Positions 34,001 to 40,407 of a stretch of DNA of 64,000 nt are shown here, in pieces. The notes beneath the pieces are model-generated. The model saw nothing but the letters and a program-made list of their open reading frames with translations. It was not told the origin of the DNA and ran no database searches. The position numbers and the translations under genes were made by a program. Each line of letters opens with the position of its first letter. Position 1 is the stretch's first letter. Source of the DNA: Promethearchaeota archaeon (GTDB lineage: Archaea; Asgardarchaeota; Lokiarchaeia; Sigyniarchaeales; SOKP01); assembly GCA_019058445.1 (NCBI GenBank), contig JAHPZA010000003.1, positions 292,819 to 356,818 of the forward strand. Reading direction: 5' to 3'.

Positions 34001-36044
34001 TATGAAAAAACAAATGGGTGAACCAGACGCTGAAAATCAATATCAATTTAGGGGTATAAAGAAGGATGGAACTGTGATTTGGTTAGAACTTTTTTCTAAA
34101 ACGATTAGTTATCAAGAGAAACTAGCTGTTCTTGGTACTATTTTAGACATTACCGATAAAAAATTAGCAGAAAAAGCCCTAAAAACTGAAAAAAAATTTT
34201 CAGAAGATATGATAAACACTACTTCAGATACAATTTTTGTATTTGAGCCAGCAACGGGTAAAGCTATTAGATGGAATAATTCTTTTAGTGATGTTAGCGG
34301 ATACACTAATGAAGAGATAGTTTCTATGAAAGCTCCAGACTCCTATTACAGCGAGGAGGATCTTGAACAAGCAACCAAAGCTATTAAAAAAATATCAGAA
34401 GAAGGAGAAGTTACTGTTGAAATGTCCTTAATTAGTAAAGATGGGCGCTCCATACCTTTTGAATACAGAGCAAGATCTTTCAGCACTTCAGATGGTAGAG
34501 ACTTGATAGTTTCTTATGGAAGGGATATAACAGAAAGAAAGGAAGCTGAACGACAATTACGTGAATCAAAGGAAAAATTCCGCGCTCTAGTCGAGACTAC
34601 TAGTGATTGGATATGGGAAGTGGATCATAATAATATCTATAAGTATGTCAGTCCAAAAGCCAAAGACTTATTAGGATATGAGCCTGAAGAACTTATCGGT
34701 AAAACCCCATTCGACACGATGCTGCCTGATGAGAAACAATCCATAAGAGAAATGTTTGAGTCCATTAAACAATCCAAAAATTCTTTTACAGGATTAGAAA
34801 ATATATGTATAACTAAGAACGGGGAAAAAATTGTTATTGAAACGAGTGGAGTTCCAATTTTTGATGAAAAAGGCAATTTTAGGGGTTATCGTGGTATTGA
34901 TCGCGATATTACTGTTCGTAAAAAAATTGAACAAAAATTAAAAGAGTCAGAAGAAAAATATCGTCTTATTTCTGAAAACGTATACGACCTAATTGGCATT
35001 CTAAATCAGAAATTTGAATATGAATACATTAATGAAGAAGCTTTTATATCTACATTAGGCTATACTAATGAAGAGATTATTGGAACATACGCATTAAATT
35101 ACATTCATCCTGAGGATCGTGAACTAGCATTAAATAATTTAGCTGAAGGCTTTAAAACAGGGTACGGATCTGCAGAAGTGAGATTTAAACACAAGAATAA
35201 CCAATGGATATGGATTGAAGCAAGAGGAAAAACTTTCACGGGTTCTGATGGAGATTTAAAAGCATTGATAGTATCAAGAGATATTACCAAACGTAAAAAA
35301 GCTGATGAAAATCTAAGAGAATCTGAAGAAAAATATCGGGATGCGTATGATCAAGCGAACTTCTATAAAGATCTTTTTGCCCACGATATAAATAACATTA
35401 TGCAAGTTATCAATTCTTCAGCAGAACTTATAAATTACTATATGAATAGCCCTGAAAATCTTGAAGAAATCGGCACAATTGCCGATATGATTAAAAAACA
35501 AATTGCTAAAGCAAAAATTCTAGTCCATAACGTAAACACTCTCTCAGAACTAGAGGAAGGGACAAAACCAATCAAATTAATAGAAGTTTATGAGTTGGTA
35601 CAAAATTCAGCGAAATATGTTAGAACTGCTTTCCAAGAGAGAGCTATTGATATTGAAATTGAATCTTTCAGTAACAGAATATTTGTACAAGCCAATGAAT
35701 TGCTGCAAGAGGTATTTGATAATATTTTAACAAACGCCGTAAGGTATAATGATAATTCTCTAATTAAAATTTTGGTAAATGTGTCTAGAGAAAGAAAAGA
35801 TGATCAAAAATATCTTAAATTTGAATTGATAGATAATGGCATTGGTATAGAGGATGAAAGAAAAAGAATTATATTTAAGAGAGGTCATAGAGAATCTAAA
35901 GGGCAAAAAGGAATGGGTTTAGGATTATCCTTAGTAAAAAAAATATTAGAAGGATTTAATGGAGAAATTTGGGTTGAAAATCGAGTTAAAGATGATTATA
36001 CTAAAGGAAGTAATTTTATACTATTAATACCAGAAGCAGGGTAA
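31053..36044 (+). CDS. Giant multi-PAS histidine kinase (1663 aa)
   Basis: About 10 PAS/PAC repeats (ESEEKYR..ENAND..HPxD), H-box FAHDINN and an HATPase domain (DNGIG, GLGL). Confidence 0.93.
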   Translation: MSKARAGSSPFEEKGAFLFKHLPMPSYAWQIVENDLILIDYNNVAFEITEGRIEKYLKIKATELYKDQPEILEDLRKCVRERTNFFKEIKYKFTSVDLERYFSVNYGFIPPDIVIVHTNDITEKKQIEFQKQQLEEKLIKLTKELSIVNQELEQKYHYKSNQLLKSEEKYKIITENANDIIIVFNREFKIEYCNEKPLNQILGYKIEELIGMYGYELIHPDEKETVIAGFMKGRETGKSVVVARIRHQKGYYIWIEATGRVFTDKNGIKKDVVIVRDISDRKLAETKLLNSEFELKERVKELSALYHISKIFDISNISVDDVLYDVTNFLPAAFQYPNITCARIRYNTNEYRTINFKETDLKISIKERINEKLLTIDIYILEDKPFLEEEVYFLNDIGKRLKNFLEKKETEQYLRKSEEKYRLISENANDLIVIVSKEGIIEYVNKRPLLKNFGYSLTEIIGRKPNEFIHPDALEEGEFNIIKYLKKGKKNINARLRHKKGYFVPVEFSISLFIDAYKEPKQLVIVRNISKRQEAEQKLKESEVKYRLITENVNDLISIVNEELKYEYINENVTQEMRGFSREDRIGNSPIDILHPDDIEKAKRAILEAFEVGEGRLEVRLINRDGGYDWFDVKGKTFIDIDGKKKILLVSRDLNERKEAEKKLRESEKKYRRQFEDSPNMILLLNSSGTIIDVNPAFLLNSIHNKGELIGNNFQHISGFGTLHMPLFQEKFAELLNIGHLKPIELQVHLKDNQLKWISLQASVIDIDGVKLVQVIAQDINERKEAEQKLIESEEKYRLIAENANDMIYVLNKDYRFEYINESTLMKQMGYTSEELIGKMPLEYIHPEDIGRVRKGLRKGFGTGQGTIEVRIMDKEGKYHWVEIRGQTFIDSDGKLKALSIARDINERKIAEQQIKESEEKFRTIAEQSFLGIAIIQDNLLKYVNQKLADIFGYSIEEADTWQVGEFLNVIHPEDKQFVAKQAMKKQMGEPDAENQYQFRGIKKDGTVIWLELFSKTISYQEKLAVLGTILDITDKKLAEKALKTEKKFSEDMINTTSDTIFVFEPATGKAIRWNNSFSDVSGYTNEEIVSMKAPDSYYSEEDLEQATKAIKKISEEGEVTVEMSLISKDGRSIPFEYRARSFSTSDGRDLIVSYGRDITERKEAERQLRESKEKFRALVETTSDWIWEVDHNNIYKYVSPKAKDLLGYEPEELIGKTPFDTMLPDEKQSIREMFESIKQSKNSFTGLENICITKNGEKIVIETSGVPIFDEKGNFRGYRGIDRDITVRKKIEQKLKESEEKYRLISENVYDLIGILNQKFEYEYINEEAFISTLGYTNEEIIGTYALNYIHPEDRELALNNLAEGFKTGYGSAEVRFKHKNNQWIWIEARGKTFTGSDGDLKALIVSRDITKRKKADENLRESEEKYRDAYDQANFYKDLFAHDINNIMQVINSSAELINYYMNSPENLEEIGTIADMIKKQIAKAKILVHNVNTLSELEEGTKPIKLIEVYELVQNSAKYVRTAFQERAIDIEIESFSNRIFVQANELLQEVFDNILTNAVRYNDNSLIKILVNVSRERKDDQKYLKFELIDNGIGIEDERKRIIFKRGHRESKGQKGMGLGLSLVKKILEGFNGEIWVENRVKDDYTKGSNFILLIPEAG

Positions 36045-36109: not shown

Positions 36110-36262
36110 TTAATCGCGTTCATAAAATTTGCCTGGTTTTGCACCACAAAATGCCTCAAACTTGAAGAATGGCACAGTTTTTTCACAAGATGGACATGCA
36201 TAGGTTCCAGGAGCTGAATTTTGTAATACATAGTTACAGTTTGAACATATTGCCCACTTCAT
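36110..36262 (-). CDS. Small zinc-ribbon protein (Cys paralog of the 39298-39411 candidate selenoprotein)
   Basis: Manual translation: MKWAICSNCNYVLQNSAPGTYACPSCEKTVPFFKFEAFCGAKPGKFYERD*. Pattern CxxC-x13-CPxC-x12-C. Alternative ATG at 36286. Confidence 0.78.
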   Translation of the reverse strand: MKWAICSNCNYVLQNSAPGTYACPSCEKTVPFFKFEAFCGAKPGKFYERD

Positions 36263-36820: not shown

Positions 36821-36844
36821 CTTTTTTTTATTAATAAAAAAAAG
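36821..36844. terminator. Bidirectional oligo-T terminator (perfect 24-bp palindrome)
   Basis: CTTTTTTTTATTAATAAAAAAAAG gives T8 on both strands. It lies between the J-domain stop and the end of the minus-strand SECIS-3. Confidence 0.6.
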
Positions 36845-36854
36845 ATGGTAAAAT

Positions 36855-36901
36855 ATATCCAGAACCCTTGCTGGGTTGTCATCGTGCGTCTCATTTTTTT
36901 T
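36855..36901 (-). ncRNA. SECIS-3, 3' half (separated from its 5' half by the IS)
   Basis: Minus strand AAAAAAAAUGAG-AC-GCACGA-UGAC-AACCC-AGCAA-GGGUU-CUGGAUAU, homologous to the 3' halves of SECIS-1 and SECIS-2. Confidence 0.75.
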
Positions 36902-38316
36902 CCTTTTTTTAAGTAGAAAACCATATCTTTTAGGAAATGGATGATCTTGTATAAAAATTATTAATCCCCTTCAGTTCTTACTTTTTTATAGAGCTTCAGT
37001 CAAATATTTATAATAGGATATCAAAAAAGGAGGATAACTCTTGAAAATTAACAAAACAATGAAGCTTCGGCTCTATCCGACCAAAATCCAACGAGAACTG
37101 TTGAATAAGACATTTGGCTGTTGCCGTCTTCTATGGAATCAGATGTTAGCGGAGCGCAACGAGGTATTTCAAGAATTTAAAGAGAACTCCGAAACCTTGA
37201 GGAATTATAAGTATAAAAAAGAAAAGGATTATAAACAAGAATTTGAGTTTATGAAAGAGGTCGATAGCAAGGCTTTACAATCTACAACCCTATACCTAAT
37301 AGAGGCATTCAATAATTTTTTTAATGGGTTAAAGGTGTCCCGAAAAGTAGGATATCCGAGGTTTAAATCAAAAAAAAGTAAACAATCCTATACTACTTAT
37401 AACATCAATAGCAATATTAAAATTGATTTTGACCTAAAACATATTAAGCTCCCAAAAATTAAAAAATGGATAAAGTATAAGGATGATAGGAGTTTTACCG
37501 AGCCAATTCGTCATGTAACCGTTTCGAAAACCAAGAGCGGACACTATTACTTGGCCATTTTGATTGAAAAAGAGCTTGATATCTCACCTCTAACGGAAAT
37601 CCACGAAGATCGTATAGGAGCATTTGATATGTCAGCCACAAGGTTTCTGATTAGTGAAACTGAAGACTTTTCCAATCCTAGGTTTTATAGATCCTCAGAA
37701 GCGAGGTTAAAGCAATTGCATCGCCAATTATCTCGCAAAAAAAAGAATTCTCAAAATCGACTGAAAACCAAGCTGAGACTTGCTCGAATGTATCAAAAGA
37801 TTTGGTATCAAAAATATGATTGGACACATAAAACGACCCTTAAACTAGCTAATAAATATGATGTAGTAGTCTTAGAAGACCTTAACATCCAAGGAATACA
37901 AAAATTTAACAGCGGTCTATCTAAATCCGTGACATTAGATTTTTCATGGCATCAGTTTAAAACATTGCTAAAATATAAACTTGAATGGCGAGGAAAGCAC
38001 TAACTAGAGGTGAATCGTTTTTTTCCTTCAAGCAAATTATGCTCTGTATGTGGGCATAAAAATATTGATTTAACATTAGCAGAACGCGTATGGGTATGTA
38101 CTGAATGCGGTACACAACATCATAGAGATAAAAATGCGTCAAGCAATCTAAAAAGAGAGGGTATTCGTCTCTTACAAGAAAGAGGAATTAAAGTCATTAT
38201 TTGACCTACCGTTGGGACGACGGGAAGTTACGCTTGTGGAGATCTTGTAAGACACCCTTTAAGGTGCTTTGGTCAGGGAAACAAGAATCCAGATCCTATA
38301 TGGACTGGTAGTTCAA
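36902..38316 (+). mobile_element. IS200/IS605-family tnpB-only (IS1341-type) element
   Basis: Related subterminal hairpins at 36921-36940 (CCATATCTTTTAGGAAATGG) and 38289-38308 (CCAGATCCTATATGGACTGG). Right end has a GAAT guide (38285-38288) and a TCAA terminus (38313-38316). No tnpA. Left junction is uncertain between 36902 and 36913. Confidence 0.85.
37041..38204 (+). pseudogene. tnpB: TnpB RNA-guided nuclease interrupted by in-frame TAA at 38001-38003
   Basis: LRLYPT..FGCCR, YPRFKSK, RuvC acidic motifs (AFDM, VLEDL). After the stop, in the same frame: [11 protein letters not shown]...CTECG..HHRDKNA. Confidence 0.88.
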
Positions 38317-38336
38317 GCAAGATTCATTCTAAACTG
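38205..38336 (+). ncRNA. Putative TnpB omegaRNA (right-end RNA) plus flanking guide
   Basis: GC-rich structured tract (CCTACCGTTGGGACGACGGGAAGTTACGCTTGTGGAGA...) between the tnpB stop and the TCAA end. The guide is inferred as the following ~16-20 nt. Confidence 0.65.
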
Positions 38337-38341
38337 GATAT
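38317..38341 (-). ncRNA. SECIS-3, 5' half
   Basis: Minus strand AUAUCCAG-UUUAGA-AUGAA-UCUUGC. AUAUCCAG pairs 8/8 with CUGGAUAU (36855-36862) and UCUUGC pairs 5/6 with GCACGA on the other side of the IS. Confidence 0.75.
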
Positions 38342-38468
38342 CTAATTATAAATATTTATTAATTGCATCCGTTAGTATATCTATTTAGGATTTATTAATT
38401 TAAAATATGGAAACAATTTATTGGTTAAAATGATTTAAATGTTTAATAACACTCATTAATTTTATAAA

Positions 38469-38533
38469 CCTTAATCCTTGGCTAGGATGTCAGCAAATGT
38501 CTAAAGTTTTTACATTTGCCTCATTCGTTAAGG
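38469..38533 (-). ncRNA. SECIS-1, eukaryote-type, in the 3' UTR of the UxxU peroxiredoxin-like gene
   Basis: CCUUA-ACGA-AUGAG-GCAAAUGU-AAAAACUUUAG-ACAUUUGC-UGAC-AUCCU-AGCCA-AGGAU-UAAGG. It has the AUGA/UGA quartet core, an 8-bp helix II and an A-rich apical loop. Confidence 0.9.
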
Positions 38534-38582
38534 AAAGAATTTAAAATTTCAGTTAAGGAATGGTGTATCGATTATCATTTAC

Positions 38583-39098
38583 TTATAAATATTTATCAAT
38601 CGCATCAGTTAATATTTCTATTGTGGGTCTATCTTCTTTACTACCTATATAATACCAAACTATTTCTCCATTTTTTTTAATAAGTACTTTAGCAGGAAGA
38701 GCATTATTAACTTGTAAATCATCATGACCATCGGTTTTTTCTGTTACAAACATATTATATGATTTAGCTATTTTTCCGCCTTTATCAGGGATAGTCGTGA
38801 AATTAAAATTATTAACTTCTTTCATCTTTTTCAATCGTCTAGTACTATCTTTTGCTATTGCTATTAACTTTACGTTGCGTTTTTCGAACTCTGACATATT
38901 TTTGGTTAAGTATTTAAAGTGTTCTATTCAATATACTCACCATCCCCCTCTAAAGAAGTCGATTAAAACCCCTCGATGGTTCTCAAGCATAATCGCTAAA
39001 TTTGCTTCATTCCCATCAATGTCGGTTGTATCGATAGTAGGAGCTTTGGAACCAATAGGTAATCCTTTATTAGGTATAGAAATATGTAAATCTGTCAT
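38583..39098 (-). CDS. AhpC/TSA (peroxiredoxin-like, thioredoxin fold) selenoprotein with UxxU motif, 171 aa
   Basis: MTDLHISIPNKGLPIGSKAPTIDTTDIDGNEANLAIMLENHRGVLIDFFRGGW-U-VY-U-IEHFKYLTKN continues in frame into the 104-aa ORF (38583-38897). TGA at 38937-38939 and 38928-38930 occupy both Cys sites of the family FxRGxWCPxC motif. A SECIS lies downstream. Confidence 0.92.
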
Positions 39099-39193
39099 TA
39101 TTAACAATAAAAACAATAGAAATAAAAAGGATATTGAAATATTTTAAAAGAAAAAATAAAGAAAAATGATTAATTGTGTGTAGCGTTTTTTAA

Positions 39194-39260
39194 TCCTTAA
39201 TCCTTGGCTAGGCCGTCAGCATACGTCTATATTTTATACGTCTGCCTCATTCTATTAGGA
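39194..39260 (-). ncRNA. SECIS-2, eukaryote-type
   Basis: UCCUAAUAGA-AUGAG-GCAGACGU-AUAAAAUAUAG-ACGUAUGC-UGAC-GGCCU-AGCCA-AGGAU-UAAGGA. Helix II has a compensatory U-A to C-G change relative to SECIS-1. Confidence 0.88.
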
Positions 39261-39297
39261 ATTAAATTAAATTTTTTAATTACGTCAGATATATGAT

Positions 39298-39411
39298 TTA
39301 TCATTTAAATCTTAGTTCCATGAAAAATACAAATCTTCGACAGTTAGGGCAATAATAGTATCCACTCGTATTCTCTTGTATTGTATGTCCACACTTTTGG
39401 CATATTATCAT
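39298..39411 (-). CDS. Zinc-ribbon microprotein with putative C-terminal selenocysteine (37 aa)
   Basis: MIICQKCGHTIQENTSGYYYCPNCRRFVFFMELRFK-TGA-TAA. The TGA aligns to a Cys of the 36110-36262 paralog. The SECIS-2 core is 50 nt downstream. Confidence 0.72.
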
Positions 39412-39654
39412 ATGGTATCATTTAGTTGATAATTTGACATCTTTTAAAGTTTAATTTTATATTTTAAATATTAATTAGCAAATCATATTTATATATATAA
39501 ATCCGAGAAAAAAGTCGCTTTTTTCAGATGAAAACACGTACATAAAATTGCGTAATTAAATTTATATTATCCAACCCTATTATTATATCAATTCCTAAAA
39601 GTATAATGCATTGAAATATTATCTAAAATATTAACAGAAAGGGGTTGTTTTTTT

Positions 39655-40407
39655 ATAAATATCGTTAAAATAATCGTTGACGGATTTGGTGGAGTAGGAA
39701 AGACAACCTTACTCAAAAAACTCGAGTACGGAATCTTCGACCCAGATACAAGGTTAACGATCGGATGCGATTTTTTTGCTAAAAAAACAAACCTTTTTGG
39801 ACATAGTGTAACTGCACAATTTTGGGATTTAGTAGGAGCAGCCCGATTTAATTTTTTGCGACCAATTTGTTATAAGGGAGCAAATTGTATTGTTTTAGTG
39901 GCAGACCTCACGAGACCAATCACTTTTGAGCGAATTGATTATTTTATTGAAGTCGCAAAAAAAGCTAATATTAATCCTAATCAAATTATTTTAGTAGGAG
40001 CCAAAACAGACTTATTTTATGAAAGAAGCGTTGACTCCCTTTATTTATCAACAATTTTAGAAAAGCTTGGCATATCCGAATCCGTAGAAACATCGGCAAG
40101 AAATAACCATAATTTAGAGGAATTATTTGAATTAGCTACTGCCTTGGCAATGTATCACAAGGGAATGATTACTGAAAATGAATATATCTTTATGAAAGAA
40201 GAAGTTAAACAGAGAATTAAAGAACCAGTGCCCGAACCATATGAAAAATTAATAAGAAAATGCTGGAAGTGTGGAAGATCGTTATTCTTTCACGAATTTT
40301 GCGATTCTAATAATAAAATTTATAATGAAGAGAGATTATTAGAATTATGGGAAAATCCTGTTCTTGAATTTTATTGCTGTGCTTGTTATAAAGAGCTAAC
40401 TTCTTAA
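39655..40407 (+). CDS. Rab-like small GTPase with C-terminal Cys-rich domain, non-canonical start
   Basis: Frame is open upstream of the tracked ORF: IVKIIVDGFGGVGKTT (G1), TIGCDF (G2), WDLVGA (G3), GAKTD (G4), ETSAR (G5), then CWKC...CCAC. No in-frame ATG/GTG/TTG before 39856. Confidence 0.85.
   Translation: MNIVKIIVDGFGGVGKTTLLKKLEYGIFDPDTRLTIGCDFFAKKTNLFGHSVTAQFWDLVGAARFNFLRPICYKGANCIVLVADLTRPITFERIDYFIEVAKKANINPNQIILVGAKTDLFYERSVDSLYLSTILEKLGISESVETSARNNHNLEELFELATALAMYHKGMITENEYIFMKEEVKQRIKEPVPEPYEKLIRKCWKCGRSLFFHEFCDSNNKIYNEERLLELWENPVLEFYCCACYKELTS

Follow-up and report, generated by a model that had tools for sequence, protein, structure and literature searches.

A 37-residue zinc-ribbon-like microprotein with a very likely C-terminal selenocysteine and its own SECIS element in one Promethearchaeota family

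The locus described here lies in the metagenome-assembled genome of a sediment Promethearchaeota (Asgard) archaeon, on a stretch of 64,000 nucleotides (GenBank assembly GCA_019058445.1, contig JAHPZA010000003.1, positions 292,819 to 356,818 of the forward strand) that we refer to as the window; coordinates count from its first letter. A gene for a microprotein that very likely ends in selenocysteine (Sec), a SECIS element, a gene for a peroxiredoxin-like selenoprotein (PrxL) with a SECIS element of its own, the two halves of a third SECIS and a Cys-containing paralog of the microprotein follow one another on the minus strand, as listed below.

39441..39461, minus strand: putative TATA/BRE-like promoter box of the microprotein gene, 30-50 nt 5' of its ATG (sequence only)
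39416..39421, minus strand: (G)TGAT Shine-Dalgarno-like motif of the microprotein gene (sequence only)
39298..39411, minus strand: microprotein gene, 37 residues (translation and 57 orthologous loci)
39301..39303, minus strand: UGA codon 37, very likely read as Sec, the final residue of the microprotein (ortholog codon comparison)
39181..39266, minus strand: SECIS-2, the microprotein's own 3' SECIS (covariance model R1, 70.5 bits, E = 9e-13)
38583..39098, minus strand: PrxL, peroxiredoxin-like (AhpC/TSA) selenoprotein of 171 aa, sense part 39098..38586 (translation; PF00578, E = 6e-22)
38455..38540, minus strand: SECIS-1, the 3' SECIS of the PrxL gene (R1, 79 bits)
~38345..38318, minus strand: 5' half of a third SECIS (helix I half)
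36844..36910, minus strand: 3' half of the third SECIS, split by an IS (tnpB) insertion (R1, 25 bits, helix II missing)
36110..36262, minus strand: Cys paralog (group B) of 50 aa, sense 36262..36113, stop 36112..36110 (gapless alignment to the microprotein)

The microprotein gene opens with an ATG (39411..39409) and runs through 36 sense codons (39411..39304), with the ribbon Cys codons at residues 4, 7, 21 and 24 and a Lys at residue 36, into an in-frame TGA (39303..39301) for Sec37 that is directly followed by the true stop TAA (39300..39298). A/T boxes and the TGAT motif occur at matching distances in orthologs of several genera when the upstream regions are compared, and the gene appears to own a promoter, an inference made from sequence alone. 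Divergent from it lies a Ras/Rab-like small GTPase ORF (window 39856-40407, plus strand) with a Cys-rich, zinc-finger-like tail, and a Ras-family gene recurs near the microprotein gene in relatives (neighbourhood families; Pfam match). The wider neighbourhood holds genes for an LRR protein, a glutamate dehydrogenase, a CooC-like ATPase, a CdhC-like fragment, the Ras-like GTPase and an AlaX-like protein; it looks like inherited synteny and no functional lead was gained from it.

An AF2 model of the microprotein, built on a 19-sequence alignment (mean pLDDT 90), shows a ribbon of three strands (2-4, 17-21 and 26-32) followed by a tail of five residues, the last of them Sec, and its two CxxC knuckles (CxxC-x13-CPxC) keep an invariant spacing. 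From zinc-ribbon geometry the third strand would be expected to run away from the metal site and to place the selenol at the far end, which is inferred, the model coordinates being uninspected. No Pfam or NCBIfam model reached its cut-off for the microprotein, and zinc-ribbon and rubredoxin-like matches were all sub-threshold: PF21349 was matched by paralog P0002 alone (17.4 bits against a cut-off of 26.5), and there were weak matches to RUBY_RBDX for the paralog and to the rubrerythrin model NF045767 for 11 of the 19 members. Foldseek returned nothing from the PDB at E <= 0.001, with bL33 and the rubredoxin-like domain of LapB on top (TM 0.6-0.75), and a protein cluster search with the Cys paralog gave generic zinc-ribbon clusters only, leads at best. 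Since the metal (Zn or Fe) is undetermined, 'rubredoxin-like or zinc ribbon' stays a generic label. Very few relatives were present in a library of 1.84 billion representative proteins, and these were called as unnamed proteins of 36 residues that stop at Lys36.

The ortholog set comes from a profile search that covered all 135 genomes of the family to which the window belongs; it comprises 57 full-length loci in 56 genomes from 8 of the 13 genera of this one Promethearchaeota family. A six-frame search of relatives gave homologs in 25 of 61 genomes, nearly all from the same family, and no microprotein orthologs were found at E <= 1e-6 in 265 genomes from other families of the phylum. Because all orthologs belong to one family, the 57 loci cannot count as independent observations. 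At codon 37, 52 of them have TGA and five have TGT (Cys), with no other codon, and TAA or TAG immediately after Lys36 was seen in none of the 57. The 55 distinct sequences end in TGA-TAA (41), TGA-TAG (9), TGT-TAA (3) or TGT-TAG (2); the two remaining loci are both TGA forms, one repeating another protein and the other that of genome G156. Among the 54 orthologs of the same length (codon 37 TGA in 49 and TGT in five) the codons on either side vary synonymously, Lys36 being AAA in 34 and AAG in 20, and the stop TAA in 44 and TAG in 10. In the window's genome TGA terminates just 13% of ORFs of at least 200 aa and an in-frame TAA or TAG directly follows 5.3% of TGA stops, so the TGA-then-stop pattern of the microprotein is far beyond chance. 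The four Cys, Lys36 and codon 37 are invariant across the aligned members. Mean pairwise difference by codon position is 0.36/0.29/0.53, highest at the third position, which is the signature of a coding sequence, and rises to 0.64 in the 24 nt past the stop. The five Cys-form loci fall at two or more separate places in the tree, and a tree of 37 columns leaves the direction between Sec and Cys unresolved.

The G156 ortholog (L079:1483-1613, minus strand, equal to G156:C10 ~35037-35167) carries an extra in-frame TGA at the fourth ribbon Cys (CPLU) in addition to the terminal K-U-stop; the downstream sequence is conserved and a SECIS is present. Either this variant has two Secs, one of which serves as a metal ligand, or the extra TGA is a very recent nonsense mutation.

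SECIS-2 has the core of a eukaryote-type element, with AUGA at 39250..39247 and GA at 39217..39216 (in UGAC), 50 nt between the TGA and the AUGA, a helix II, an A-rich apical loop, an extra small hairpin at ~39212..39202 and a helix I closing at ~39194. Covariance model R1 was derived from alignment A2, which holds the 3' regions of 38 orthologs and the window's PrxL element. In A2 the ATGA, the loop adenines and a 3' AC are invariant and the core G is kept in at least 90%, and helix II has eight pairs with compensatory changes at all eight and 94% of cells paired; its covariation score was reached by 0 of 500 shuffles, and slid pairing registers scored far lower. A lokiSECIS-type element is present at 52/52 TGA loci and at 0/5 Cys loci, and R1 detected it at all 14 Sec-form loci outside its training set (42-79 bits). 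In 49 of the 50 distinct Sec-form sequences, 34-55 nt (median 44) separate the UGA from the AUGA. At the five Cys-form loci merely 57-80 nt separate the gene from the next one, no SECIS match lies between, and the sole SECIS comes after the PrxL gene. These comparative data show a gene that is conserved as a protein, whose codon 37 is only ever UGA or Cys, whose true stop always comes next, and whose SECIS tracks the UGA and not the neighbouring gene.

R1 also detects the 3' SECIS of PrxL genes in other genomes and, in the window's genome, one that follows a gene for a hydrogenase large subunit with a DCUxxCxxH motif at its end. No SECIS family was matched in the window by Rfam cmscan, either with the gathering score or with a relaxed E-value, and this silence at SECIS-2 agrees with the report that standard SECIS tools overlook Loki SECIS elements (PMC4989117). 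The spacing exception lies in G002, of the same genus (L015:1288-1500, minus strand), where the SECIS is found ~135 nt downstream, behind a short remnant resembling a PrxL C-terminus; this layout probably reflects a rearrangement of the locus. In another Sec-form ortholog (L052:1385-1471, minus strand) a GUGA core replaces AUGA (R1, 59 bits). The extra hairpin (CCY-loop-RGG; A2 columns 57-68) sits between the 3' GA core and helix I, making a three-way junction, with 87% of cells paired, and no mention of such a junction was found in the searched parts of the lokiSECIS paper (PMC4989117).

The paralog at 36262..36113 has a Cys in the column of Sec37, 13 residues past its last ribbon Cys. The microprotein orthologs (group A) and the group B paralogs are reciprocally monophyletic (support 100/100), and clade B has mostly Cys, sometimes Asp, in this column. 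For 25 of the 55 distinct microprotein sequences a Cys/Asp paralog lies within 1.4 kb. Tandem sets of A (Sec/Cys), B (Cys, FCGAKP context) and B' (Asp, FDG) occur in this order at L029, L044, L045, L056, L059, L063 and L073, so that the Sec37 column reads U, C and D in neighbouring genes. Group C paralogs have acidic tails, and those of group D end in ...TYFS followed by TAA (3), TAG (2) or TGA (2), without a second stop and without a SECIS. Group D is thus a natural control in which the stop drifts freely, as is expected of a real stop. A covariance model search found no SECIS after paralogs of groups B, C or D.

The PrxL gene reads through two in-frame TGAs (38939..38937 and 38930..38928, minus strand) to give the redox box W-U-V-Y-U. 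A two-Sec PrxL is already known, and PrxL has no Cys beyond its redox box (PMC4989117); all PrxL genes found in this analysis contain UGA. The 3' UTR of the window's PrxL gene and SECIS-1 match the last codons, spacer and SECIS-2 of the microprotein without a gap over ~130 nt (window 38455-38586 against 39181-39312, minus strand; alignment A5), and the homology includes TAAATGATAA. The shared AAAUGAUAA motif is a product of this homology. We considered it as a general RNA motif 5' of SECIS elements and rejected this; it was seen behind a PrxL gene only in this genome, and within the microprotein gene its variation is that expected of Lys and stop codons. Apparently the unit of Lys-Sec-stop and SECIS reached the 3' end of PrxL by copying or conversion. 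The third SECIS was split by an IS200/IS605-type tnpB element of ~1.4 kb (ORFs 37041-38003 and 38010-38204, plus strand, the frame being in two pieces), and its helix I halves AUAUCCAG and CUGGAUAU, now ~1.4 kb apart, pair into a helix I of 8 bp. Immediately ahead of the split SECIS lies a remnant of 13 codons (IDILTDAINKYL-stop; window 38347-38385, minus strand), a duplicate of the PrxL gene end, which suggests a former tandem PrxL copy.

The microprotein gene lies directly upstream of a PrxL selenoprotein gene in genera g1, g3, g5, g11 and g12. Of the 50 distinct Sec forms, 7 are followed by PrxL, 18 by a Cys/Asp paralog, 5 by an AlaX-like gene and 20 by another gene or none, and since PrxL is not the next gene in 43 of the 50 we conclude that SECIS-2 serves the microprotein ORF. 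A Sec-form gene with its SECIS also precedes PrxL genes that have a single Sec (UxxC), and where a Cys form precedes PrxL, the only SECIS left is the one 3' of PrxL itself. By hand count PrxL is present in ~40 of 56 genomes with the microprotein gene against ~46 of 79 without it, a loose co-occurrence, and with the query used it was not found in several near-complete genomes that carry the microprotein gene.

The window's genome has the machinery for Sec: SepSecS scores 478 bits, the SelB/EFSec match of 242.3 bits barely reaches the cut-off of 242.25, and tRNA-SeC(tca) was called by ARAGORN alone, Rfam giving only a generic tRNA model at that site. SepSecS is present in 130 of the 135 genomes of the family, and selenoprotein genes for PrxL and a hydrogenase occur in the window's genome. 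In genome G000, ARAGORN called 5 tRNAs without the intron option and 23 with it, most of the called tRNA genes containing introns.

The original prediction, made without database searches, had described a minus-strand ORF ending in TGA-TAA, a eukaryote-type SECIS core 50 nt past the TGA and a gapless alignment with the ORF at 36110-36262 in which a Cys stands 13 residues after the last ribbon Cys, and all three held, the first exactly. Its reading of the last residue as Sec is supported by the comparative data (52 TGA and 5 TGT, with co-segregation of the SECIS), with no incorporation data. It had named three outcomes as refutations and none was met: TAA and TAG never occur at codon 37 of an ortholog; every non-TGA ortholog has Cys there, as does most of the sister clade; and every TGA locus has a downstream SECIS while no Cys locus does. 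The claim that the family is unrecognised held within the Asgard and prokaryotic selenoproteome literature searched, and the description as a tiny Zn-ribbon or rubredoxin-like protein remains as generic as it was. That gene callers cannot see the ORF held only partly, as it is sometimes called as the 36-residue form ending at Lys36. One caveat failed, namely that SECIS-2 might serve the downstream UxxU gene, acting from its 5' side.

Our data thus make it very likely that the ORF is a genuine gene, that its product is a C4 zinc-ribbon or mini-rubredoxin-like microprotein of 37 residues and that its terminal UGA encodes Sec, a conclusion that rests on comparative evidence, without expression or selenium-incorporation data and with no RNA run listed for this DNA. 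Against the Sec reading, it is unusual for so costly a recoding to gain a single residue, and a ribosome that terminated at the UGA would give a nearly identical product of 36 residues. In one rival reading the UGA is an ordinary stop with a tandem stop as a backup and SECIS-2 belongs to PrxL, acting from the 5' side or aiding the second Sec. In its favour, SECIS-2 lies in the window between the microprotein ORF and a gene with two Sec codons, and tandem stops do occur (~5% of genes). However, no PrxL follows 43 of the 50 distinct Sec forms, PrxL genes that need only one Sec (UxxC) also stand behind SECIS-bearing Sec forms, and PrxL behind Cys forms has a 3' SECIS only; on these grounds service of the UxxU gene from the 5' side is rejected. 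Codon 37, moreover, never drifts to TAA or TAG and has Cys as its sole alternative, whereas the stops of the group D control drift freely, and this rival is all but ruled out.

The ORF could instead be a regulatory leader peptide, functionless in itself, whose terminal UGA senses the supply of Sec-tRNA or selenium and tunes genes such as PrxL, and it is indeed short, UGA-ended and directly 5' of a selenoprotein gene in several genera. Against this stand the conserved folded C4 ribbon with its confident model, the existence of Cys forms and of stand-alone paralog groups without any UGA, the promoter-like box of the gene itself, and the unrelated genes that follow most copies; we consider a leader peptide very unlikely. 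The last alternative, that the ORF is untranslated and its conservation reflects an RNA or DNA element or chance, can point to the absence of expression data and of any curated protein family above threshold. It is practically excluded by the codon-position pattern, by synonymous changes in the codons on either side of codon 37, by a CxxC...CxxC spacing that never varies, by the longer related paralogs, and by the 24 nt beyond the stop being more variable (0.64) than any codon position.

Under the preferred reading, that of a terminal Sec, the microprotein mRNA would have its lokiSECIS-type element ~50 nt after the UGA, with the AUGA...GA core as a K-turn, a ~9-bp helix II and an apical loop rich in A. 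It is inferred by analogy with the selenoprotein mRNAs of other archaea and of eukaryotes that SECIS-2 would recruit the Sec-specific elongation factor and Sec-tRNA, and that the ribosome would insert Sec at the UGA and then terminate at the adjacent UAA. The selenol, at the tip of the short tail that follows the third strand, may form a redox-active or nucleophilic centre, and we infer that the protein is a redox microprotein, with no direct data on its biochemical function. A redox partner or relay is our working model because a terminal selenolate on a small metal-stabilised scaffold fits such a role. The leading guess, which is tentative, is selenenyl-sulfide or diselenide exchange with the neighbouring UxxU/UxxC PrxL or with its own Cys paralog; the weak co-occurrence at genome level lowers the idea of PrxL as partner, and complex prediction for the Cys-form microprotein with the Cys paralog and two Zn (score 0.03) speaks neither for nor against pairing. 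A bolder reading, conceivable as a whole, is that of a minimal stand-alone redox relay, in which a ribbon with an Fe(Cys)4 or Zn(Cys)4 site carries a selenolate at its terminus as the selenium member of a tandem U/C/D paralog set, the selenolate relaying reducing equivalents to the diselenide/selenenyl-sulfide PrxL or forming a trans Se-S centre with the Cys paralog. Were this true, one Promethearchaeota family would have a peroxide-defence module of its own that is based on selenium, and the microprotein would be, to our knowledge, the first de novo defined selenoprotein family in Asgard archaea.

The microprotein would add a lineage-specific family, found de novo, to the seven published Asgard families, all of which were found by homology, and would be among the shortest selenoproteins, with a literally C-terminal Sec that a 2026 review gives only for the bacterial 'star' families. 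Usual pipelines are blind to it because a UGA as the last sense codon leaves no extended ORF, and SECIS-first scans for 'UGA-then-stop' micro-ORFs could reveal more such genes. The Sec, Cys and Asp paralogs, with and without SECIS, offer a natural series for the gain and loss of a eukaryote-like SECIS, and in this one locus a SECIS unit was apparently copied together with the Lys-Sec-stop codons and another was split by an IS. The gene also offers a compact system in which Asgard SECIS function can be tested with archaeal reporters.

Seven selenoprotein families have been described in Asgard archaea, namely SelD/SPS, VhuU/FrhA, VhuD/FrhD, HdrA, PrxL, AhpF-N-like and DsbA-like (PMC4989117, PMC11227280), and Huang et al. 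(2024) reported seven families in more than 400 Asgard genomes from searches seeded with known selenoproteins (PMC11227280). Both studies depended on similarity to known selenoproteins or to Cys homologues, or on an ORF that continues beyond the UGA (PMC4989117, PMC11227280), and for this reason a 37-codon ORF with UGA as its last sense codon would escape them. The microprotein belongs to none of the seven and, unlike them, has Sec as its C-terminal residue; Pfam and NCBIfam scans found no SelD, FrhA, HdrA, FrhD, PrxL, AhpF-N or DsbA-like domain in it. It was absent from the Asgard and prokaryotic selenoproteome papers searched, a zinc-ribbon selenoprotein in archaea was not found in the full-text literature searched, and the 2026 review of prokaryotic selenoproteomes has bacterial terminal-Sec 'star' and dual-CXXC families and nothing comparable in archaea.

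The bacterial 'star' selenoproteins (KCU-star/DUF466, NF033934, and UXX-star, NF041114; PMC13188914) resemble the microprotein in having Sec at the extreme C-terminus before a true stop and a Lys before the redox residue or residues. They differ in being bacterial, with an in-ORF or adjacent bacterial SECIS, and KCU-star has a vicinal Cys where the microprotein has a single Sec after Lys; an NCBIfam scan detected no sequence relationship to them. The dual CXXC small selenoprotein OS_HP3 (NF041197; PMC13188914) is likewise small, with two CXXC motifs and one Sec, but is bacterial and has its Sec in an RxU/GxU context, and NF041197 was absent from the 17 NCBIfam matches (E <= 1) of the window's protein and from the 25 families examined out of 45 to which the 19 aligned members had matches. 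The rubrerythrin rubredoxin-like domain (PF21349), rubredoxin knuckles, bL33, RpoP and the LapB C-terminal domain share with the microprotein a CxxC-x13-CPxC-type spacing and a three-stranded ribbon, which for the microprotein is predicted, but none carries a terminal Sec or Cys on a tail. Thioredoxin reductase (GCUG) and SelK/SelS carry a redox-active Sec on a flexible C-terminal end, thioredoxin reductase pairing it with an adjacent Cys and a flavin domain, and VhuU is a very short archaeal selenopeptide, the split-off end of a hydrogenase subunit; none of these is known to be homologous to the microprotein. For the lokiSECIS genes Mariotti et al. described a stem of ~9 bp, an A-rich loop of ~11 nt and an AUGA...GA core (PMC4989117). 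With these the microprotein shares the recoding apparatus and a SECIS architecture shortly past the stop, and SECIS-2 is a close sequence relative of the PrxL SECIS. The recoding mechanism is thus already known, and what is new for archaea, as far as the sources searched show, is the protein family and the architecture of a micro-ORF that ends in Sec.
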